Below are positions 10,535 to 34,597 of a stretch of 40,447 nucleotides of DNA, in pieces. The notes beneath the pieces were generated by a model. The model was not told the origin of the DNA, searched no databases, and saw only the letters and a list, made by a program, of their open reading frames with translations. Origin of the DNA: Leptospiraceae bacterium (GTDB taxonomy: Bacteria; Spirochaetota; Leptospiria; Leptospirales; Leptospiraceae); NCBI GenBank assembly GCA_031368925.1, contig JANMOF010000135.1, positions 1 to 40,447 on the forward strand, read 5' to 3'. Each line of letters opens with the position of its first letter. Position 1 is the stretch's first letter. A program made the translations under genes and the position numbers.

Positions 10535-11845
10535 TTAACTAACGAATGCCGCAAAGCAAGGAGAAGACTCCATCAAAGCTTTCTTAGTGATGTAACAATA
10601 TCCTTTATCGCCCCAACTTGTTCCCCAAGAATTTTTCACTATGTAATAGTTTCCGATATAACCAACTATCAACATTGAGTGACACCCATGTTTTCCGGAC
10701 GGTTTTTCTGCTTGTCTCAAAATTCCATCTCGACCAATTTTCTGAAACTCTGTTCCTGTGTTCATATAAAATTCTACAGGTATACCCTTCGACAGTAATT
10801 TTTTCAGATCTTCAATTCCAACATTAACAGGGTTTAGCTTAATCTTGTAATTTGCCGCATCCTTATTCATTTCTTCTTCACTAACTTTTGGTTTTTTGTC
10901 ATCGTTAGGCCATAACTTTGCGCTGCAAATTCCATACTTGACTATATTCTTAAAAGGCTCAATATTTCCTGGAGTTCCATCGGAAGCAGCATGAGCTTTT
11001 TCAAAACTAGTGAATTTTTTTAGAAGTTTATGTGTGCGTAACATGGTATAGTTAGTAGAAAGTTCTTCATGCTTTTTGTTAGCCATTATTCGCAGCATTT
11101 CAAATCCATGTGTCATAGCATATGCTTTACAACGCCCAGTCTGTTTTTGGTTACCAATCGGAGAACAGTATTTTCTTAGATCAACTATTTCCTTAGGGTC
11201 TACATTTTTCAATTCATCTGGAAGTACTTGCGGTTTTGGTATTTCTTCTTTTCGAGGAGGATCTACCAAATGTAGATTTTCGGTTTGAAACTTCTGTCCG
11301 AAAATAGCTAGCAGAATAGCAAACGACTCCGGTGTTAAGAATCCCTGTGGAATTACCATGTCTCCGTTTTTATAAAACTTTATCGTATCAAAAGAAGAAC
11401 TTGGACTTTCAAAAGCTAATTGTTCATAGTAACTGCTAGCCGCTGCTTCTTCAACCGGTTCATTTCCTTCTTCAGCCATCCAATCGTCATATGATTCACC
11501 GAAATGTTCGTTGTCAGCAAAAACCTTTCCACCAAATTCCTCATAGTCTTCGTCTGACCAATCACCATTATCCTCTTCTAGCCATTCATCTTCTAAATCA
11601 TAATCAGCAGCCGACTCAAATGCATCGTCATCGTCACCAAGATCATAATCTAATTCTTCTCCATCATCTTCGGGCTCTTCCTCTGCTTCTTCTTCACCAG
11701 ATTCATCTTCTTCTGGCTCGTCACTTCCTGTATCATCCGAATCGTCTTCGTCCGGAGAAAAAAGTTGAAGATCCATTAAAAAAACTGGATGCAAAACTTC
11801 CTTATTATTCTCGCTTTCTATAATTACTTTTTCATTATTCTCCAT
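10535..11845 (-). CDS. Papain-like (family C1A) cysteine peptidase with a ~170-aa poly-acidic (Asp/Glu-rich) N-terminal extension and no signal peptide
   Basis: VDLRKY...SPIGNQKQTGRCKAYA (Gln/Cys region). GKHGCHSMLIVGY (His). YIVKNSWGTSWGDKGYCYI (Asn-Ser-Trp-Gly). N-terminus EDDSDDTGSDEPEEDESGEEEAEEEPEDDGEE. Confidence 0.8.
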   Translation of the reverse strand: MENNEKVIIESENNKEVLHPVFLMDLQLFSPDEDDSDDTGSDEPEEDESGEEEAEEEPEDDGEELDYDLGDDDDAFESAADYDLEDEWLEEDNGDWSDEDYEEFGGKVFADNEHFGESYDDWMAEEGNEPVEEAAASSYYEQLAFESPSSSFDTIKFYKNGDMVIPQGFLTPESFAILLAIFGQKFQTENLHLVDPPRKEEIPKPQVLPDELKNVDPKEIVDLRKYCSPIGNQKQTGRCKAYAMTHGFEMLRIMANKKHEELSTNYTMLRTHKLLKKFTSFEKAHAASDGTPGNIEPFKNIVKYGICSAKLWPNDDKKPKVSEEEMNKDAANYKIKLNPVNVGIEDLKKLLSKGIPVEFYMNTGTEFQKIGRDGILRQAEKPSGKHGCHSMLIVGYIGNYYIVKNSWGTSWGDKGYCYITKKALMESSPCFAAFVS

Positions 11846-13933: not shown

Positions 13934-14347
13934 TCATCTGCTGCTAGCGAGGATAATCGCTGTAATCTCTACAATGAGTAGAGGAAAAAGAGAGTAAATC
14001 ATTAAATTAAAATTTGATTCTATCAGGTAATTAGTGAACTTACCCTTACCTATTATCTTCTCTAAAACAATTACTGTACTATTAGGTGCATCATTAAAAT
14101 CTATCTGCACTAAATAAAAAAATATATAAAAGAAATTCATTCCCAAAAATAGCAATAAATCCAGCGCATCGGGATTAGGGAAACTCATTGTATTCAAAAA
14201 CTTCCAGCCTGCGTACAGGTGAAGGGCAGAAATCAAAAGAAATCCAATTCCAAAAATAAATAAAAACCATCCAAATGCAAGAACTCTAAATACAAGCATA
14301 AGAAATGTAATAATTACTAATGTTGTCTTAAGTGCGACTAATGCCAT
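13934..14347 (-). CDS. Integral membrane protein (4 TM helices), downstream of the second C1 peptidase
   Basis: Hydrophobic helices. Confidence 0.4.
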   Translation of the reverse strand: MALVALKTTLVIITFLMLVFRVLAFGWFLFIFGIGFLLISALHLYAGWKFLNTMSFPNPDALDLLLFLGMNFFYIFFYLVQIDFNDAPNSTVIVLEKIIGKGKFTNYLIESNFNLMIYSLFPLLIVEITAIILASSR

Positions 14348-14565: not shown

Positions 14566-15921
14566 TTATTTATCTTCTTCCTCTTCATCATCATCTTCCT
14601 CTTCTTCGTCATCACCCTCTTCTTCGTCATCACCCTCTTCTTCGTCGTCTTCCTCTTCCCCCGAATCTTCGATTTGCCAAGTTTCAGTTAAGGTTGCTAA
14701 GAATTCCTCTTCTTCCTCAGAAAGATCATCAACACCTATGATTTCTCTTATATCATTTAAAATTTTTGCTAGTAAAGCAGCAGATAGATATTCTCCTACG
14801 AGACTTATTGATTCATCTAGAAGATCTTCATTGTCTTTTTCTTTCGCACAATTTTTTAGAATTGCTTTTGCAGACATAGTTACGCCCAATTTTTCAAGAG
14901 TGGTCTGCATATAAGTAGAGATTTCATCGTATTCTTCTTCACTAACATCTCCATCAGCTGCTGCAGCGGCTAATACGATTAGTCCGAGTCTAAACTCTAG
15001 CGGATAATCACCCATAGCATCTAGCATTTCTTGGTAGTCTTCCTCGCTCATATCTGCAAGTTCAGAATCATAGTCCCCAGTGATAGAAGACTCATCTCCC
15101 CAAGTAGATTCATCCACTTCAAAATTAGTAAGTTGCTTAATAATCCAAGTATCACCGTCATTGTATTTCGGATTAACCAGATAATCATATGGAATATAGC
15201 AATAACCCTTGTCTCCCCAATCCTCTCCCCATGAATTTCTAACAATAAAAACTTTATCTGGGTCAGAGTAGCCAACGCATAACATTGCATGTCCGCTGTG
15301 AGATTCCCTTGACTCTTCTGATGGAGTTGGAGCAGGGACTAATCCCGGTTTGCGCTGTGAGTCAAATGAATTAAATAAACTTAATCCAAAAATAATTGGA
15401 TGTCCTTCTGCTAATACTTGCTTCCAGGCATTTAAGTTTACCGGAACGGATTGCATATCTTCTACCACAAAATTTGCAGCTTCTGTAAAAGCTTCTTCCG
15501 GGGGCTCTTCCTTAAATTTGTCTATTTCATAGGGCCAAGTTCCTTCAGAACACGCACCTTTCTCTTGTAAACTTTCAATGGCAGACGCAATTACACATCC
15601 AGCATCTTCTTTAGCAGTTCCATCAATTTCTCTTGCATTATAATAAATGAAAAGCCTACTAACATCATAGCTGTCTATACCTTTGTGCTTTTTTACCAGA
15701 TATTCGTAAGCACCAGCTACTGCATTTGCGACACAACTTCCGATCTGGTCTTGGTCCTCTACTTTTGTCATATATTTCCTGAGATCGACTTTTGGAGGAA
15801 GCTTACTTGGAGCACTGCTACTTGCTGCATACTGTTTAGTTCCTGCTTTAGGTTTAGCCGCTTTGTAGCCATGAACTTGTCTTGATGAACCGTCTGCTCG
15901 ATTTAATGTAAAATTTGCCAT
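14566..15921 (-). CDS. Papain-like (C1A) cysteine peptidase fused to a TerB-like domain and a C-terminal poly-acidic tail. Probable start is the Met at 15921; the ORF extends to 15978
   Basis: KVDLRKYMTKVEDQDQIGSCVANAV, HSGHAMLCVGY and IVRNSWGEDWGDKGYCYI (C1A catalytic motifs). EFRLGLIVLAAAAADGDVSEEEYDEI...ILNDIREIIGVDDLSEEEEEFL (TerB-like). Tail EEEDDEEEGDDEEEGDDEEEEDDDEEEEDK. Confidence 0.75.
   Translation of the reverse strand: MANFTLNRADGSSRQVHGYKAAKPKAGTKQYAASSSAPSKLPPKVDLRKYMTKVEDQDQIGSCVANAVAGAYEYLVKKHKGIDSYDVSRLFIYYNAREIDGTAKEDAGCVIASAIESLQEKGACSEGTWPYEIDKFKEEPPEEAFTEAANFVVEDMQSVPVNLNAWKQVLAEGHPIIFGLSLFNSFDSQRKPGLVPAPTPSEESRESHSGHAMLCVGYSDPDKVFIVRNSWGEDWGDKGYCYIPYDYLVNPKYNDGDTWIIKQLTNFEVDESTWGDESSITGDYDSELADMSEEDYQEMLDAMGDYPLEFRLGLIVLAAAAADGDVSEEEYDEISTYMQTTLEKLGVTMSAKAILKNCAKEKDNEDLLDESISLVGEYLSAALLAKILNDIREIIGVDDLSEEEEEFLATLTETWQIEDSGEEEDDEEEGDDEEEGDDEEEEDDDEEEEDK
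14589..14658. repeat. Tandem 18-bp repeat of about 4 copies. Two are perfect (gtcatcaccctcttcttc at 14607-14624 and 14625-14642), flanked by degenerate copies. It encodes the (D/E)6 units of the acidic tail
   Basis: Read directly from the sequence. Unit is a multiple of 3. Confidence 0.8.
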
Positions 15922-16227
15922 TGTTGTTCCTTGAATTATAAAATCTAAATGAGAGAGAAATTTAAAAACTAAACCCATTAAAAAAAACTTATTGATTTAT
16001 TAAATGATAAATATTGAAATAGGCAAATTATTTTTTGCATTGCAAAATGTTATGCCAAACAAAGCAAGTGAGTCTTACTCTTATTATCCGGAAAACTAAT
16101 TTTATTTAAAAATAAGGTATGTATACTTACGTTAATGTTATATACAAAATAATCAAAAAAAAGTTTCTGGATTATTGCTTGGATAAAATTCCAAAAGTAA
16201 ATATCTCAAAATTAAAGGAAATAAAAA

Positions 16228-16440
16228 ATGAATATAGATAAAGCAGTAGATAAAGCATTCGCAGCAAAGTCATTAAAAGAAATAGCAGATGCGCCGGTAG
16301 ACGCTCTTAAAGGTGTAAGCGAAGGTGATGCAGAACTTTTACAAAAGGCATTCAATGTTAAAACAGTAAGGGACCTAGCTGAACTTAAGTATGTAAAATG
16401 GGCACAAGCAATTGTAGCTTTATCGGAAACTGAATCTTAA
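16228..16440 (+). CDS. Small 70-aa protein with a helix-hairpin-helix-like motif
   Basis: LKGVSEGDAELLQKAFNVKTVRDLA resembles an HhH element. RBS aaaggaaataaaaaATG. Confidence 0.4.
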   Translation: MNIDKAVDKAFAAKSLKEIADAPVDALKGVSEGDAELLQKAFNVKTVRDLAELKYVKWAQAIVALSETES

Positions 16441-26868: not shown

Positions 26869-29800
26869 ATGTTTAAAAATATTAGCATTAAAGGCAAGTT
26901 AGTAACTGTCTTCGTTGGTTTCTTTGTATTTATAGTGGTTATTATATTGTATGCCCTATTACAGATGAGCACCCTTGGAACTATCACCGATAAAATCGCA
27001 AACGATAGAATTCCTAAAATCATGGCACTGTCAGAAATTTCCAAACAAGTCAACTTGATTGCGCGTGCAGCGCGAAATATGTATATCTTCAAAGATAAGG
27101 CTATGGTGAATGAAGAAAAAAATACTATTATGAAAAGTAGAGAGATGATCGGACAAAAATTAGATTATCTCAAACCAATCATTAAAAACCCAAAAGCTAT
27201 TGTAATTTTAACTGAAATTTTTGAGACAAGAAAAGAATTTATAGTAGCGCAAGATAAATTTATCATGGCAATCGAAAAAGATGATTCAGAAGCAGCGTAC
27301 GATGTTCTTTTAAAAGAATTTAGACCCATTCAATTGAAATACATCAGCTCTTTAGACACACTCCTAGAATTCCAATCTCAATCTTCTCAAAAAGAAGCAA
27401 ACGATGCAATCGGTTTTATTTCTACCGTTTCCACAAATATTGCCATAGCATCTATCCTGTTTGCTATTTTATTAATTTTTTTCGGAATAACTCTTATCCG
27501 CTCTATTATAAATCCAATTCATATATTAGAGAAAGCTGTCATTGAGATTGGGCAGAATGGAAATTTCGACGCAAAATTTGAAATTCATTCAGAAGACGAA
27601 ATGGGAACTTTTGCTAAAAATTTCCAAGAGATGATGAGTAACCTTAAATCTATGTTAGCCGACGCGTCCATGCTTTCAAGCGCTGCCGTAGAAGGAAAGC
27701 TTTCTACAAGAGCCAATGCAACTAAATACAAAGGTGATATGCGTAAAATAGTAGAAGGGGTTAACAATACATTAGACGCTGTGATTGGACCTCTTAATGT
27801 AGCTGCTGACTATGTTGATAAAATCTCGCGTGGTGTTATTCCTCCTAAAATTACTGACACTTACAACGGTGATTTTAATGTAATTAAAAATAACCTTAAT
27901 TTATTGATTCAAACATTAAACGAAGTAACATCTTCCCAAATAGAACTAACAAAAATTCACCATGAGCAAGGCTTAATCAGCGAAAGGATTGACGCAAGTA
28001 AATTTAGCGGAGTTTATGCCGATATGGCGAATAACGTCAATTCCCTAGTAGAACAACATATTCAAGTAAAAATGAGAATTGTTGAAGTGGTTACACGTTA
28101 TAGTATCGGAGATCTAAATGTTGATATGGATAGACTTCCGGGTCAAAAAGCAAAGATTACCGATTCAATTGATTCAGTAAAGAAAAGTCTTATTAGCCTC
28201 AACCAGGAAATTCTAACTTTAGTAAATGCGGCTATCGCCGGTAAACTCTCCACCCGTGCAGATGCAAATAAATTTCAATTTACATTTAAAGAAATGGTTT
28301 CAGGAATTAATCAGACGTTAGACGCAGTAATAGGACCACTTAACGTTGCCGCGGACTATGTTGATAAAATTTCTCAGGGAATTATTCCAGAACCGATCAC
28401 AAAAGAATATTTTGGAGATTTTAATACGATCAAATCTAATCTAAACATTCTTGTAAATACACTTAACCGTTTCCAATCTGATATGAAAACGATGACCAAT
28501 GAACAAAAAGCAGGCGATATAGATTATTATATTGATCCATCCGGGTTCAAAGGAATCTATAAAACAATGGCAGAGGGTGTAGTTGATAACGTAAAAATTC
28601 ATGTTACCAATATTTTAGAAATACTGAATACTGTCGGTGAGTATGGGGAGGGTAACTTAACTGTTGAATTGAAAAAACTTCCCGGAAAACAAATTATTGC
28701 AAATCAAAAAGTTGATAAGGTCCGCTCTAACCTATATCTATTAACTGAAGAAATAGAAATGCTCACGCAAGCTGCAGTAAACGGCAAATTATCCACAAGA
28801 GGAAATTCGAAAAAATTTAAAGGTTCCTACACTCAATTAATAGACGGGGTTAACAATATATTAGACGCTGTGATCCTTCCTATACAAGAAGCTTCTAGCG
28901 TATTACTAGAATTATCCAAAGGAAACCTAAGAGCTAGAGTTACAGGCGATTACAAGGGTGACCATGCTACTATTAAGACCGCTCTCAATTCAAGCTTAGT
29001 TACTCTAAACGAATACGTAGGAGAAATTTCAAGAGTTCTGTCTTCCATGTCATCAGGTGATTTGACAATTGATGTGACAAAAGACTTCGCGGGAGATTTT
29101 GCTGAAATTAAAAAAGCTCTCACTCTCATCGTGGATTCTTTTAACGAACTCATCGGAGAAATTATCAACGCCTCGGATCAAATCCTGATTAGCTCCAGAC
29201 AAGTCGCTGATTCCAGTCAATCTTTATCGCAAGGCTCTAATGAACAAGCTAGTAGTGTAGAAGAGATTACTGCAACGCTCGCCGTCATCGAACTCAAAGC
29301 TAAGGATAATGCCAATAATGCGAAGAATGCAAGTGAACGCGCATTAAGCGTCAAAGAGCAAGCTGTTGCAAGCAATAACGAAATGAAGGGAATGCTTAAA
29401 GCAATGGAAGAAATCAGTGATACATCTGAAAATATTGCTAAGATCATTAAAGAAATTGATGCCATTGCATTCCAGACAAACATACTCGCGTTAAACGCTG
29501 CTGTCGAAGCGGCACGTGCTGGACAACATGGAAAAGGGTTTAACGTTGTTGCGGAAGAAGTGCGTAACCTCGCATCACGAAGTGCGAACGCTGCAAAAGA
29601 AACTACAAAGATGATTGAAGGCTCGATCAAAACAGTTCGCTCGGGTATGGACATCGCGGGGCGAACGGCTAACGAACTAAACAAGATGACTGCGGGTGTT
29701 GTTGATGTAACAGAACTTGTAAAAGATATTGCTACTGCTTCGATTGAACAATCTTCTTCGGTTGTAGAAACTACATCGGGTATCAATCAAATTTCGCAAG

Positions 29801-29970
29801 TCACTATGAGTGCTGCTGCTACTGCCGAAGAAAGTTCTGCGGCTAGTCTTGAGTTGTCGAGCCAGGCAGAAGCTTTTCAAGCTATGGTGAAGAGATTTCA
29901 AATCAAAAGATCACGCGATGAGAAAAAGAACATTCAATCTTCTACTAAAAGAAAAATTGATTTGAAGTAA
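26869..29970 (+). CDS. mcp: Methyl-accepting chemotaxis protein with a 4HB-type sensor, a second TM, HAMP, three tandem ~90-aa HAMP-like repeat modules and a C-terminal MCP signalling domain
   Basis: TM helices flank a helical sensor region. Repeats G-K-L-S-T-R...LDAVIGPLNVAADYVDKIS...GDFN.IK.NLN.L occur three times. IAFQTNILALNAAVEAARAGQHGKGFNVVAEEVRNLASRSA signalling hairpin. Confidence 0.9.
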   Translation: MFKNISIKGKLVTVFVGFFVFIVVIILYALLQMSTLGTITDKIANDRIPKIMALSEISKQVNLIARAARNMYIFKDKAMVNEEKNTIMKSREMIGQKLDYLKPIIKNPKAIVILTEIFETRKEFIVAQDKFIMAIEKDDSEAAYDVLLKEFRPIQLKYISSLDTLLEFQSQSSQKEANDAIGFISTVSTNIAIASILFAILLIFFGITLIRSIINPIHILEKAVIEIGQNGNFDAKFEIHSEDEMGTFAKNFQEMMSNLKSMLADASMLSSAAVEGKLSTRANATKYKGDMRKIVEGVNNTLDAVIGPLNVAADYVDKISRGVIPPKITDTYNGDFNVIKNNLNLLIQTLNEVTSSQIELTKIHHEQGLISERIDASKFSGVYADMANNVNSLVEQHIQVKMRIVEVVTRYSIGDLNVDMDRLPGQKAKITDSIDSVKKSLISLNQEILTLVNAAIAGKLSTRADANKFQFTFKEMVSGINQTLDAVIGPLNVAADYVDKISQGIIPEPITKEYFGDFNTIKSNLNILVNTLNRFQSDMKTMTNEQKAGDIDYYIDPSGFKGIYKTMAEGVVDNVKIHVTNILEILNTVGEYGEGNLTVELKKLPGKQIIANQKVDKVRSNLYLLTEEIEMLTQAAVNGKLSTRGNSKKFKGSYTQLIDGVNNILDAVILPIQEASSVLLELSKGNLRARVTGDYKGDHATIKTALNSSLVTLNEYVGEISRVLSSMSSGDLTIDVTKDFAGDFAEIKKALTLIVDSFNELIGEIINASDQILISSRQVADSSQSLSQGSNEQASSVEEITATLAVIELKAKDNANNAKNASERALSVKEQAVASNNEMKGMLKAMEEISDTSENIAKIIKEIDAIAFQTNILALNAAVEAARAGQHGKGFNVVAEEVRNLASRSANAAKETTKMIEGSIKTVRSGMDIAGRTANELNKMTAGVVDVTELVKDIATASIEQSSSVVETTSGINQISQVTMSAAATAEESSAASLELSSQAEAFQAMVKRFQIKRSRDEKKNIQSSTKRKIDLK

Positions 29971-29979
29971 GGATTAAAT

Positions 29980-30468
29980 ATGACTACAACATTTGATGAA
30001 GAGCAACTCGAAGAATCACAGGATACGATGGAGAATCTCTACATCATCTTCTTCATTGATGGAAGGGAGTATGGAATAGAGATTCGTTACTTAATCGAAA
30101 TCATTGCCTTTCAACCGATTACGTTTATTCCCAATTTGCCGCAGTATGTAAAAGGAGTGATTAACCTACGTGGAAAAATTATTCCCGTTATTGATGTGCG
30201 GCTAAGATTCGGTTTGCCTCCGATCGAATACAACGAATTTACCTGTATCCTCATCATGAATATCAATAATCTCAGTGCGGGTCTTGTTGTCGATGGAGTC
30301 AAAGAAGTTTTAAAAATTCCGGCTGATGCTATTGAACCTTCGCCGGGATTTGAAGAAGCAGATGTGGAACGTTTTGTTGATTCCATTGGTAAGTCAGGTG
30401 ATACGTTAAAAATCCTTATCAACCTGAATAAATTTATTCATGAAAAAGATGTAAAAGGAATTGCTTAG
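29980..30468 (+). CDS. cheW: Chemotaxis coupling protein CheW
   Basis: 162 aa with CheW-like domain (IIFFIDGREYGIEI...GLVVDGVKEVLKIP). Position between mcp and cheA. Confidence 0.85.
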   Translation: MTTTFDEEQLEESQDTMENLYIIFFIDGREYGIEIRYLIEIIAFQPITFIPNLPQYVKGVINLRGKIIPVIDVRLRFGLPPIEYNEFTCILIMNINNLSAGLVVDGVKEVLKIPADAIEPSPGFEEADVERFVDSIGKSGDTLKILINLNKFIHEKDVKGIA

Positions 30469-30476
30469 GCTCAAAA

Positions 30477-32285
30477 ATGCTTGGAGAAAATGAACTTTCA
30501 GATCTTGTGCTTGATTCACAAGAAATTTTAGACAAAGCAGAAGGAATTCTGATTCACTTAGAAAAAAGTTTAACAGATTCGTCTGTTGACCCGGAAAAGG
30601 TAAACTCTTTATTCCGCTATTTCCATACCCTAAAAGGAAACGCGGGCTTTTTCAACTTCAATGTAATCGTTAGCCTCGCTCATTCTGCTGAATCACTACT
30701 CGAGATTGTAAGAAATGATAATTCTCTTCTAGATCAAAAAATGATTCAGCTTTTTATGGAAGCACGCGATACATTGTATGAAATTTTCTCCAATCTAAAC
30801 GAGAATAAGACAGATACAATGTTCAAAGATAAGGCGGATACATTGATTCCCCGCCTATTCTATATCAAAGCAAACCTTAAAGCAGAATCTACTGAACCTA
30901 GAAAAGAAGAACCCAGGTTTGGCATCTTCAAAAAGAAAATAGTGCTAACCGAGGAAGCTCCCACAGAAGAGAATAATAAAAATTTACCTCTAGAAAAAGA
31001 AAATCCCCCTACTCTAGAGAAAAAGAAGGCAACACCGATTGAGATTATTAACGGTAATGGAAATAATCAGGCAGCAGTTAAAAAAGACATTCGAATTGAA
31101 ACGGAAAAGCTAGATTACCTGCTCGACATGATAGGTGAGCTTGTGATTGCGGAATCTCTTGTTACCCAAAATCCTGACATTAAAGAATTAGATCTTCCTA
31201 ATTTTTCTATTCAATCTTCTTATTTACGCAAAGTTGTCCGTAACCTGCAAGAAGTATCCTTGCAGCTAAGAATGATTACCCTTGAAGGTTTATTCAATAA
31301 GATGGAAAGGCTAGTTCGAGACCTCGCACAAAAGACTGGAAAGAAGGTTGGACTCCAAATAACAGGAAAAGAAACCGAGATTGATAAAAATGCGCTCGAA
31401 ATATTGACTGACCCACTCGTTCATATAATTCGAAATTGCATTGATCATGGATTAGAAACAGGTGAAGAAAGACTAGCAAAGGGAAAACCGGAATCTGGAA
31501 ATATTAGAATTGAAGCAATGCACTCCGGTAATGAAGTTTGGATCATTGTTTCTGACGATGGTGCCGGACTAGACAAAGATAGAATTTTAACGAAAGCAAA
31601 GTCGCGCGGTTTAATCAAAGAAGGGGAAGAAGAAAATCTTAAAGATGAAAGGATTTGGGACTTCATATTTCAACCTGGATTTTCCACAAGCGACAAAGTA
31701 ACGGATATTTCTGGACGGGGCGTAGGTCTAGACATTGTTCGTAGAAACATAGCAAAGATCAACGGCGATATAGAAATCAAAACCAGGAAAGACCAGGGTG
31801 CTTCTTTTATTTTAAAATTACCACTTACAATTGCGATCATCGAAGGAATGGTTGTCATCTACAATGGGGTATTCTATATTATCCCCACAATCGACGTAAA
31901 AGAAACTCTTAACCTTACAGAATCAAAAATTGACTATATTGATCAAGACAAGAAAGTGATTCGCTTTAGAGATCAGCTAATACCTGTTGTCTCCGTAGAG
32001 AGGTTACTCAATCACGACTCGAGCGATAAAAACTCATCCTATGAAAAATCTCTTTATGTGATCATTGTGGAGTATAAGAATAATTCGCTAGCACTTGTAT
32101 TCGATGGAATTGTTGGCAATCAATCTGTCGTGATTAAACCTATTCCAGATTATCTAAAGGGCACAAAGGGATTTTCCGGTTGCACCATACTTGGAAGCGG
32201 AAATATAGGAATGATACTCGATATTAGATTCTTTATCAATAATTACTATAAGGAAAATAAAGAATCCGAAGCTTCCCATGGATAG
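30477..32285 (+). CDS. cheA: Chemotaxis histidine kinase CheA (P1 Hpt, linker, P3 dimerisation, P4 HATPase, P5 CheW-like). Short form of 602 aa with no recognisable P2
   Basis: Hpt His in FRYFHTLKGNAGFFNF. GRGVGLDIV G2 box. C-terminal CheW-like domain. Confidence 0.9.
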   Translation: MLGENELSDLVLDSQEILDKAEGILIHLEKSLTDSSVDPEKVNSLFRYFHTLKGNAGFFNFNVIVSLAHSAESLLEIVRNDNSLLDQKMIQLFMEARDTLYEIFSNLNENKTDTMFKDKADTLIPRLFYIKANLKAESTEPRKEEPRFGIFKKKIVLTEEAPTEENNKNLPLEKENPPTLEKKKATPIEIINGNGNNQAAVKKDIRIETEKLDYLLDMIGELVIAESLVTQNPDIKELDLPNFSIQSSYLRKVVRNLQEVSLQLRMITLEGLFNKMERLVRDLAQKTGKKVGLQITGKETEIDKNALEILTDPLVHIIRNCIDHGLETGEERLAKGKPESGNIRIEAMHSGNEVWIIVSDDGAGLDKDRILTKAKSRGLIKEGEEENLKDERIWDFIFQPGFSTSDKVTDISGRGVGLDIVRRNIAKINGDIEIKTRKDQGASFILKLPLTIAIIEGMVVIYNGVFYIIPTIDVKETLNLTESKIDYIDQDKKVIRFRDQLIPVVSVERLLNHDSSDKNSSYEKSLYVIIVEYKNNSLALVFDGIVGNQSVVIKPIPDYLKGTKGFSGCTILGSGNIGMILDIRFFINNYYKENKESEASHG

Positions 32286-33357
32286 TAACAGAAAAATAAA
32301 AGTATTTATCGTAGATGACCAAAGGGTTGTCCGAAATATAATCAAAAAAATGATTACAAGTGACCCGCAGATCGAAGTTGTCGGGGAAGCCTCCAACCCA
32401 TATGAGGCTAGCGAACTCATTCCTGAATTAGAGCCAGATGTGCTTACCCTAGATGTAGAAATGCCCCGCATGGATGGAGTGGAATTTTTGCGAAAGCTAA
32501 TGCCACAATATCCAATACCTGTAATAATGGTGAGTAGTACTACAGAGGAAGGATCAGAAAAAGCAATTCTAGCGATACAATACGGTGCGGTTGATTTTGT
32601 GACAAAGCCAGATGGGGGAGCGTTTACTCTAGAGTCAACGCAAGTAGAATTAATCCAGAAAATTAAAACTGCGTCTACTATCAATATTGATAGATGGCTC
32701 AAGCATTTAAAATATAAATCCCTCCCATTAGTAGCAAATCCAAATGCAGGTAAACAGCATAAAAGTAAGTATAACCTCATTGCAATTGGTGCATCAACAG
32801 GAGGAGTCACAGCAATACGAGAAGTGTTATCAACCGTTCCAAAGGATTTTCCATGCATTGTGATTACGCAGCATATGCCGCCAGGATTTACTGCAACTTT
32901 TGCAAAAGGTGTATCCAAAGACTTTGGACTCGATGTGCGAGAAGCGAAAGACTTAGATTTAATTCAAGCCGGACGTATTTATATTGCGCCTGGCGATTTT
33001 CATCTAGTAGTGAATAGAAGAAACGGAATAAACCATACAGTCGGATTAACGCAAACAGAAAAAGTAAACGGGCATAGACCTTCCGTAGATGTTCTATTTC
33101 ATTCCATAGTTGAGAATAAACTTGCACCGGAGACAATTGGCATTATTTTGACAGGCATGGGTATGGATGGAGCAAAGGGACTACTCGCAATGCGAGATGC
33201 AGGCTCAAGAACAATTGGAGAAAACGAACAATCGGCTCTGATTTATGGAATGCCAAAAGTGGCTCACGACATTGGAGCTGTAGAAGAGCAACTTCCACTT
33301 TCTATGATGGTATCCAAATTAAAAACGTATTTGAATTACTCGGGTTTGTATGTCTGA
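32278..33357 (+). CDS. cheB: Chemotaxis response regulator protein-glutamate methylesterase CheB
   Basis: REC domain (VFIVDDQRVVRN...LTLDVEMPRMDG) plus methylesterase motifs IAIGASTGG, HMPPGFT and GMGMDGAKG. Confidence 0.9.
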   Translation: MDSNRKIKVFIVDDQRVVRNIIKKMITSDPQIEVVGEASNPYEASELIPELEPDVLTLDVEMPRMDGVEFLRKLMPQYPIPVIMVSSTTEEGSEKAILAIQYGAVDFVTKPDGGAFTLESTQVELIQKIKTASTINIDRWLKHLKYKSLPLVANPNAGKQHKSKYNLIAIGASTGGVTAIREVLSTVPKDFPCIVITQHMPPGFTATFAKGVSKDFGLDVREAKDLDLIQAGRIYIAPGDFHLVVNRRNGINHTVGLTQTEKVNGHRPSVDVLFHSIVENKLAPETIGIILTGMGMDGAKGLLAMRDAGSRTIGENEQSALIYGMPKVAHDIGAVEEQLPLSMMVSKLKTYLNYSGLYV

Positions 33358-34597
33358 CAAAATATTACTTTATACTAAAAATGAAACAATTGTAGAACAG
33401 GTCACAGCCTATATTAGTGATCTTACTTATAAATTCAGTGTAGCGGATAATATAGATAATCTCACGACCAATCTAAGATCAGAAGAGTCATGGCTTTTAG
33501 TATATGACTTTATGGATACTTCAAAAGAGAATCAAAAAAATCTCGCTAACATATTAGCTGATTATCCATTTCAATTGGTAATTCTTTTAATCAACAGGGA
33601 TGAAGGCGATGAATTCATCCAGATGATGGAAAATTATAATGTCTATGACATTGTTGCTTACCCAATTTATAAATTCAAATTACATTTTGCCATAACAAAA
33701 GCAGTTAGCTACGGAAGAGTCATATCGAAAATTTCAGACTTTAAATCTAACGAAAAACAAGTTTTCGAATCTATGATCAAAGTGTTTGATTGGCGAAAAG
33801 AACTCGATACCAGGAAAGTAGAATCCCTGGCTAATGAACTTATACACCAAATCAATATTAGCTTCTTTCATGGAAGCGGGCTCGGTTCTCTTATTAGCAC
33901 ACTCAGTATTTTATTTTCGAAAGCAAAATTGGACGAAGATAAAAAAGCCTACCTGGTTCATGAAAAAATTTACCAATTATTAAAAGACAATTATGATGAA
34001 ATTCTAAAACTAAGCGATAGTCTTACCAAAACACAGGAAATACTTGCTGAAAAGAATTACTATACCGAAAAAATGACTCTTAAGGATTTTTACAGTGCGT
34101 TAACCGCAATGGTAAAAGGAATGAAACCAATAGCTGGAATTAAAACCCAAAAAATAGTGATGGGAAATTTTCCAATAGAACTTGCATCTAGATCAATCAT
34201 AGCAAGCCCTGAAAATTTAAAGCTAGTCTTTGATGAATTACTCACAAATGCAATCAAATACTCTGAAGACGGGGATACTATCTATATATTATTTTCTCAT
34301 GATAAGTCCGATCTGGGAATTAGAATTTTAAACCCTGCTTATAAAAATTCTGACGGAACCGTAGGGATAACAGAGAGTAATGCACATAAAATATTCGAAC
34401 CATTTTTCAGATTGACGAATGTTGTTGATGATAGATTTATGCAGGAGACATTTCGATTTGGCTTAGGTCTCACCGTCGTAAATAAAATTATTGATTTACA
34501 TAAAGGTAGCATTTCGTTTTATACAACAGACAATAATATGAGACGAGATAGTAACACAAAAGATGTTTGTGTTTGGGTTAGATTTCCCATTTTATAA
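33350..34597 (+). CDS. Histidine-kinase-like ATPase (HATPase_c) protein with an N-terminal receiver-like (possibly pseudo-receiver) domain and no canonical H-box
   Basis: N-box ELLTNAIKYS. G2 box GLGLTVVNKIIDLHKGSI. N-terminal alpha/beta region with LVILLINRDEGDEF resembling REC. Translationally coupled to cheB (8-nt overlap). Confidence 0.6.
   Translation: MSDKILLYTKNETIVEQVTAYISDLTYKFSVADNIDNLTTNLRSEESWLLVYDFMDTSKENQKNLANILADYPFQLVILLINRDEGDEFIQMMENYNVYDIVAYPIYKFKLHFAITKAVSYGRVISKISDFKSNEKQVFESMIKVFDWRKELDTRKVESLANELIHQINISFFHGSGLGSLISTLSILFSKAKLDEDKKAYLVHEKIYQLLKDNYDEILKLSDSLTKTQEILAEKNYYTEKMTLKDFYSALTAMVKGMKPIAGIKTQKIVMGNFPIELASRSIIASPENLKLVFDELLTNAIKYSEDGDTIYILFSHDKSDLGIRILNPAYKNSDGTVGITESNAHKIFEPFFRLTNVVDDRFMQETFRFGLGLTVVNKIIDLHKGSISFYTTDNNMRRDSNTKDVCVWVRFPIL

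Follow-up and report, generated by a model that had tools for sequence, protein, structure and literature searches.

A papain-type peptidase of a Leptospiraceae bacterium with a TerB-like domain and a repeat-bearing acidic tail is an orthologue of the C1-TerB family

What is a papain-type cysteine protease doing with a TerB-like domain and an acidic tail that is encoded by a tandem repeat? The question is raised by a gene at 14566-15921 on the minus strand of a 40,447-nucleotide stretch of DNA from a Leptospiraceae bacterium (assembly GCA_031368925.1, contig JANMOF010000135.1, positions 1 to 40,447). The whole stretch was analysed and is called the window; all positions are those of the window, and all parts of the peptidase gene lie on its minus strand. 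An earlier note, made from the letters alone, had described the gene as a C1A peptidase fused to a TerB-like domain, with an in-frame 18-bp repeat in the acidic tail, and this sequence-level observation was confirmed in full. We hold the identity and the architecture of the gene (C1A protease, TerB-like domain, acidic tail) with high confidence. The window gene is one more orthologue of a known, widespread and functionally uncharacterised family, the C1-TerB peptidases. The overall explanation that we favour, at a probability of roughly 60%, is a stand-alone xylellain-type C1A peptidase with the TerB-like domain as its regulator and a polyanionic tail prone to slippage; identity, slippage and regulation are weighed together in this figure.

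An intact papain-type active site is followed by a TerB-like domain

The complete coding sequence, taken from the open reading frame (ORF) list and the sequence, specifies 451 amino acids (aa) and a TAA stop codon (14566-14568), and its start agrees with the N-termini of the homologues. The papain-family (C1A) catalytic domain occupies aa 41-265 (15127-15801). Pfam Peptidase_C1 (PF00112) matched residues 41-243 with 66.8 bits (E=3.9e-18) against a cut-off of 20.7. The catalytic Cys-His dyad, the oxyanion Gln and the orienting Asn of C1A peptidases are all present as Cys63 (15733-15735), His211 (15289-15291), Gln57 (15751-15753) and Asn229 (15235-15237), and the four residues were invariant in an alignment of 86 homologues. 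The domain also has the papain fold, and its closest solved relative is xylellain (PDB 3ois), with which 248 residues superpose. Thus the active site reads as that of an intact C1A peptidase, and proteolysis is predicted. Xylellain of Xylella fastidiosa, solved as a 291-residue construct, ends just after the catalytic domain, without a TerB-like domain or an acidic tail.

An I29 propeptide was absent from the window protein. In its place stands a conserved, basic N-terminal segment of 40 residues (aa 1-40, 15802-15921) with the motif R-A-D-G-S-x-R-x-V-x-G-Y... L-P-P-K-V-D-L-R, in which Gly18-Tyr19 are invariant and Asp10-Gly11 nearly invariant in the same 86-homologue alignment. The median net charge of this segment over 120 homologues was +5. 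In the full-length model (mean predicted local distance difference test, pLDDT, 84; predicted template modelling score, pTM, 0.78), the N-terminal segment was ordered and the tail was disordered. The catalytic domain is joined to the C-terminal domain by a linker (aa 266-290, 15052-15126), which in the alignment has a nearly invariant Trp274 and in the model has little regular secondary structure.

The C-terminal domain (aa 291-418, 14668-15051) consists of seven helices and has invariant E309, R311, L384 and W415. It carries two acidic Asp...Glu motifs, namely D323/E330, both invariant, and D398/E404, of which D398 is nearly invariant and E404 invariant. When the window protein was compared with Pfam TerB (PF05099), residues 317-419 aligned with profile positions 9-110 of 118 at 17.0 bits (E=0.0075), and the isolated C-terminal domain reached 20.2 bits. 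The Pfam gathering score for TerB is 24.4 bits, which is an operational threshold and not a biological feature. Because the single window sequence stays under this score, we use the label 'TerB-like', for a divergent subfamily. At the level of the family, 47 of the 53 orthologous C-terminal domains matched Pfam TerB (best E=3e-8) and 11 of the 53 matched DUF533, a family of the TerB clan in Pfam.

When 1.84 billion representative proteins were screened with a profile of the C-terminal domains, just 171 reached E<=1e-3. Apart from C1 fusions, this set held small stand-alone proteins and others with two domains and a length of about 265 aa; the proteins retrieved by the profile scored 44-58 bits on Pfam TerB. 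In a profile-profile comparison by hhalign, the domain alignment matched an alignment of 19 proteins of this kind over 108 columns with a probability of 98.5% (E=2.5e-15); each of the 19 is itself positive for Pfam TerB (best E=4.2e-21). The comparison aligns the terminal Trp and the two Asp...Glu motifs, and the motifs of the window protein match the ADG...E of the TerB-positive proteins. The Asp...Glu motifs of TerB have reportedly been proposed as a metal site.

The structural comparisons agreed with this assignment. The domain has the helical fold of TerB-like proteins, and Foldseek returned 2h5n with a probability of 1.00 and a template modelling (TM) score of 0.54, at a weak E-value; in the fold search of the C-terminal domain the next match scored 6.5. 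When PDB sequences were searched, the C-terminal domain profile yielded designed helical proteins only and no TerB chain, and a Pfam-TerB-positive protein yielded nothing useful. Since there is no sequence-level tie to solved TerB structures, the link to TerB rests on the fold search, Pfam and hhalign.

The sub-threshold scores of the single sequence (17-20 bits), the designed helical proteins from the PDB search and the weak Foldseek E-values would all fit a generic helical bundle, in which an acidic sequence rich in Ala and Leu mimics TerB through its composition alone. We consider this reading very improbable, in view of the profile-profile comparison, the family-level Pfam matches, the profile search and the fold search, all of which bear out the TerB-like segment. 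The earlier note had staked this assignment on an HHpred relationship to TerB, and the hhalign and fold matches supply one. The C-terminal domain is therefore TerB-like, of a narrow and divergent subtype. Compared with TerB proteins at large (PF05099/COG3793, PDB 2ou3, the DjlA domain), it is set apart by its divergence, by its fusion to a protease and by the lack of any link to terZABCDEF.

The architecture is shared by a large family across phyla

The fusion of a papain-like protease to a TerB domain had been taken as unusual in the earlier note. It turned out to be the common property of a large conserved family spread over many phyla and already labelled as such. A word-indexed search gave 1229 matches among 8000 scored candidates, and the figures given here are from the best 120 clusters. 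At least 120 clusters share the whole architecture, with a query coverage of at least 89% and an identity of 50-91%; they come from Leptospiraceae, Beggiatoa, Myxococcota, Bacteroidota, Verrucomicrobia, Spirochaetota and others. In a scan of one genome per species, full-length relatives were found in Leptospira, Rhodoferax, Polyangiaceae, Minicystis, Labilithrix, Desulfonema and Methylococcaceae, and further in Leptolyngbya, Abditibacteriota, gut Bacteroidales, Treponema and Sericytochromatia. The identity across phyla was 50-60%.

Several members already carry the annotation 'C1A family cysteine protease/uncharacterized tellurite resistance protein B-like protein', given by the Joint Genome Institute (JGI). 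Kordis & Turk (2023) name 'short bacterial C1-terB peptidases' and list transfers of C1-terB peptidases from Deltaproteobacteria to ascomycetes and diatoms (PMC10380794). These peptidases have the same full architecture as the window protein (N-terminal segment, C1A domain, TerB-like domain and acidic tail), and the window protein differs from them in its exact sequence and in the repeat content of its tail only. An identical copy of the 451-aa protein was not present in a collection of 15 billion sequences, and NCBIfam gave no meaningful match for the peptidase. The novelty of the locus is thus low, since the window adds one orthologue with a recent 18-bp tail duplication to a catalogued family. 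The interest that remains lies in what the family does and in the tie of its protease clade to a polyanionic tail.

The tail repeat is very likely a product of in-frame slippage

The protein ends in a poly-acidic, disordered tail of 33 residues (aa 419-451, 14569-14667; DSGEEEDDEEEGDDEEEGDDEEEEDDDEEEEDK), with a pLDDT below 50 for residues 419-444. The about four copies of an 18-bp unit, two of them perfect, that had been noticed in its coding DNA were recovered by Tandem Repeats Finder as an in-frame array of 4.6 copies at 14576-14658 (89% matches). The two exact copies, GAAGAAGAGGGTGATGAC (EEEGDD), are located at 14608-14625 and 14626-14643. When the tail's own 33 codons were shuffled, an exact tandem duplication of at least 6 codons appeared in 63 of 100,000 trials; the exact duplication therefore exceeds what composition alone would give.

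The earlier expectation that the repeat would expand and contract in frame was borne out by close relatives. In the 90% cluster nearest to the window, identical bodies of 420 residues carry tails of 19-32 residues, mostly 1-3 codons apart. In the closest relative (L006, protein P0132; body identity 94.7%), 39 bp are missing exactly at the duplicated units of the window. Two members of the 90% cluster end otherwise than the usual ...EEEEK, namely P0125 in ...EEERKISSRY and P0127 in ...DDELRFEDTH; from their sequences, such ends could stem from a frameshift close to where the repeat tract stops or from a misassembly, and the body is unaffected.

In every lineage, the tail that follows the conserved W-Q-I-E motif is Asp/Glu-rich and non-conserved. 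Over the family, the acidic segment has a median length of 31 residues (range 0-137) and a median Asp+Glu (D+E) fraction of 0.76. Exact tandem peptide repeats of their own were found in 36 of 119 homologues, and the units differ (EDEDE x7, EEGEE x6, DEDEESDE x5). Acidic tails are also present outside the TerB-bearing proteins. Sister proteases that keep the N-terminal segment and the catalytic domain and have no TerB domain, from Arcicella, Emticicia, many cyanobacteria, Thiothrix and Beijerinckiaceae, have D/E-rich C-termini in 20 of 24 cases. The tail therefore tracks the protease clade and not the TerB-like domain. The idea of the tail as a special variable device did not hold, given acidic tails of very different length and unit throughout the family and in the TerB-less sisters.

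A programmed contingency locus, in which the copy number of the 18-bp repeat is adaptively varied to tune the length or function of the tail, would be in keeping with the length polymorphism among identical-bodied proteins and close strains, with the duplication beyond chance and with the 39-bp indel. However, the unit is a multiple of 3 (6 codons), so that on/off switching is impossible, and nearly all tail variants keep the frame, unlike a switching phase-variable locus. Moreover, the differences are mostly of 1-3 codons rather than of full 18-bp units, the units vary by lineage in a tail of 0-137 residues without conserved sequence, and the TerB-less sisters show the same behaviour, which is usual for GAN-rich low-complexity coding DNA. 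We regard a contingency locus as quite unlikely. The repeat is very likely a recent in-frame duplication, made by generic replication slippage in the GAN-rich low-complexity DNA of the tail. Selection appears to keep the negative charge and the disorder of the tail, rather than its length or sequence.

Some of the sister proteases have extreme acidic tails (L042 from Arcicella, L064 from Oculatella, L044, L045, L055, L071 and others), in part with poly-Glu of more than 80 residues, and in the genome collection N masking hides some of these tails. A separate acidic module of about 45-50 residues (FDFYV...EDF...LE.LC..Y......Y.F.YE; no Pfam match) was seen in L047, L048, L061 and L074-L076. Proteins from cyanobacteria, Thiothrix and Bacteroidota carry one or more copies of it behind the catalytic domain, and it also follows the acidic tail in some C1-TerB proteins (C-terminal extensions of P0021, P0028, P0047 and P0059).

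The peptidase stands alone and is probably cytoplasmic

Neither a signal peptide nor a membrane helix was found in the window protein or in any of 120 C1-TerB homologues, and a hydrophobic N-terminal stretch was found in 0 of these 120. Since a signal peptide and a hydrophobic N-terminus are missing, a cytoplasmic location is presumed, and the window peptidase is probably a cytoplasmic enzyme. TerB domains are described as located in the cytoplasm or at the cytoplasmic side of the membrane (compare DjlA), and the hosts of the family are mostly free-living environmental bacteria. These points speak against a xylellain-like protease that is exported to act on proteins of a host or outside the cell. 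Such a role is brought to mind by xylellain, the closest solved relative and a protein of a plant pathogen, by the proposal that xylellain-like peptidases act on plant proteins (PMC12090721), and by sister proteases with a signal peptide or a LysM domain; for the window protein we judge it quite unlikely. The sisters in question are L054 (Verrucomicrobiota), which has a clear N-terminal signal peptide, and L046, which has a LysM domain (E=5.5e-5).

The neighbourhood of the gene was compared with that of its homologues. The window is chromosomal DNA with 36% G+C and is syntenic with contigs of Leptospiraceae metagenome-assembled genomes that encode 91-95% identical proteins. The genes near the peptidase encode TIG and PEGA domain proteins, ABC permeases, a DUF2934 protein, RtcB, a Mur ligase and a chemotaxis cluster. 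The Beggiatoa orthologue adjoins gyrA, and the neighbours are other ones again in Vitiosangium and in a JGI contig. When all ORFs within 6 kb were clustered over 41 loci, no flanking gene was shared apart from generic ABC-transporter matches; the clusters present at many loci were the peptidase itself and overlapping shadow ORFs. Neighbour clusters present in 20, 9 and 8 loci were rejected, since all of them are shadow ORFs that overlap the peptidase gene. The other recurrences were the ABC-transporter matches (6 loci) and one further cluster (5 loci).

A TerD or other ter-associated partner nearby had been suggested as a check. TerC, TerD/TerZ/TerE, TerA and associated families were found neither among the neighbours in the window nor at the syntenic, the distant or the 41 clustered loci, and no defence-island context was seen. 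PADLOC gave no match for the peptidase or its neighbours, and with no PADLOC match and no conserved partners the gene does not belong to Shango, Bunzi or Dionysus. The window peptidase is thus a self-contained unit, outside ter operons and recognised defence systems.

We also considered a single-gene conflict or anti-phage module, in which the TerB-like domain would detect an infection or damage to the membrane and free the protease as a toxic effector. TerB domains, which may monitor the membrane, do occur in Shango, Bunzi and Dionysus (bioRxiv 10.1101/2025.09.30.679545), proteases often serve as effectors in defence (PMC12642450), and the patchy phyletic distribution in the genome scan suggests horizontal transfer (PMC10380794). 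However, besides the missing PADLOC match and the missing conserved neighbour in 41 loci, the surrounding genes are of housekeeping or mixed kinds (gyrA, ABC transporters, cell-envelope genes) and do not form defence islands. Furthermore, the 50-60% identity across phyla points to strong purifying selection, unlike fast-diversifying conflict genes. A defence role is therefore unlikely.

A regulated, latent protease is proposed

For the favoured stand-alone, regulated peptidase, a mechanism can be sketched, which we put forward as tentative in its three parts (latency through the N-terminal segment, regulation by the TerB-like domain and binding by the tail). The basic N-terminal 40 residues probably sit in the active-site cleft and would keep the enzyme latent, by analogy with xylellain, in which part of the N-terminus reportedly blocks the active site. 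The ordered N-terminal segment of the model and the 248-residue superposition on xylellain are in line with such autoinhibition. TerB domains are thought to bind metals or to move between the cytoplasm and the membrane; the TerB-like domain here is probably regulatory, and D323/E330 and D398/E404 may let it bind a cation, a small ligand or the membrane and thereby govern the activity or the location of the protease. The polyanionic tail probably serves to bind cations or basic proteins, be they partners or substrates.

Several points weigh against this picture. The window sequence by itself falls below the Pfam TerB gathering score, and in structure the domain resembles TerB-like proteins no more than moderately (TM about 0.55, Foldseek E=0.1). 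The general role of TerB domains is undefined, the substrate of xylellain is unknown (PMC12090721), and a literature search found no functional study or experiment on any C1-TerB member. In addition, the features of L054 and L046 suggest that the wider clade may be partly extracytoplasmic, unlike the C1-TerB proteins. Even so, the defence, contingency, export and not-TerB explanations are all less likely than the regulatory picture.

A more specific version of the regulated peptidase would be a bacterial calpain-like design. A latent cytoplasmic protease would be opened by a TerB-bound cation or stress ligand, and basic substrates, for example ribosomal or nucleoid proteins in free form, would be brought to it by the tail, in a part comparable to that of polyphosphate for Lon. 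The polyanion would be the core of the clade, because acidic tails are also found on the TerB-less sister proteases, and TerB would be one of several interchangeable regulatory inserts. We offer this version as a speculation that is unlikely to hold. Calpains, the papain-like proteases of family C2 whose helical domain binds Ca2+, serve as an analogy only. They share with the window protein a cytoplasmic papain-fold cysteine protease and an acidic, putatively metal-binding helical domain; they differ from it in their peptidase family, and their regulatory domain is unrelated.

The family deserves attention on two counts. A conserved, apparently cytoplasmic papain-type protease is kept across many phyla and has been passed to fungi and diatoms (PMC10380794). 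Moreover, the coupling of C1 and TerB in a single polypeptide is a tractable case for learning what TerB domains sense.

Start codon and neighbouring genes

A Shine-Dalgarno-like AAGGAA, read off the sequence, lies 5 nt before the ATG (15927-15932, minus strand). A second in-frame ATG upstream, at 15978, makes a longer ORF possible. The start at 15978 is unlikely to be used, because the homologues begin at the position equivalent to 15921 (MANFT). The JGI call of the closest relative (P0132; L006, 3001-4374) begins 19 codons upstream with MGLVFKKFSHLDFIIKGII...; judged from the homologues of other lineages, which lack this extension, the call is probably over-extended. Scans of the window for promoters and terminators gave no more matches than shuffled sequence did, and neither Rfam nor a tRNA scan found anything in it.

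Two small ORFs flank the peptidase gene, namely a divergent one of 70 aa at 16228-16440 on the plus strand and, 218 bp downstream, one of 137 aa for a multi-pass membrane protein at 13934-14347 on the minus strand. Their position is kept in the Leptospiraceae contigs L002, L003 and L006 and not in other phyla, and neither has a Pfam or PADLOC match. A second papain-family peptidase is encoded 2.7 kb downstream on the same strand (10535-11845, minus). In this protein the catalytic domain, which shares 32% identity with the first peptidase, lies at the C-terminus (Pfam C1, residues 221-422, E=7.5e-17) and is preceded by a region of about 220 residues without a Pfam match. This second peptidase is conserved in the syntenic contigs of Leptospiraceae, whose gene calls give it 527 aa.

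Farther away, the chemotaxis cluster (26869-34597, plus strand) looks ordinary and includes a 1033-aa multi-HAMP methyl-accepting protein and a CheA-type kinase. A gene at 35098-37587 (plus strand) encodes an 829-aa protein with matches to Band_7/SPFH, to a vault repeat domain and to the shoulder domain of the major vault protein (PF11978, E=1.5e-23); it is a bacterial major-vault-protein-like gene.
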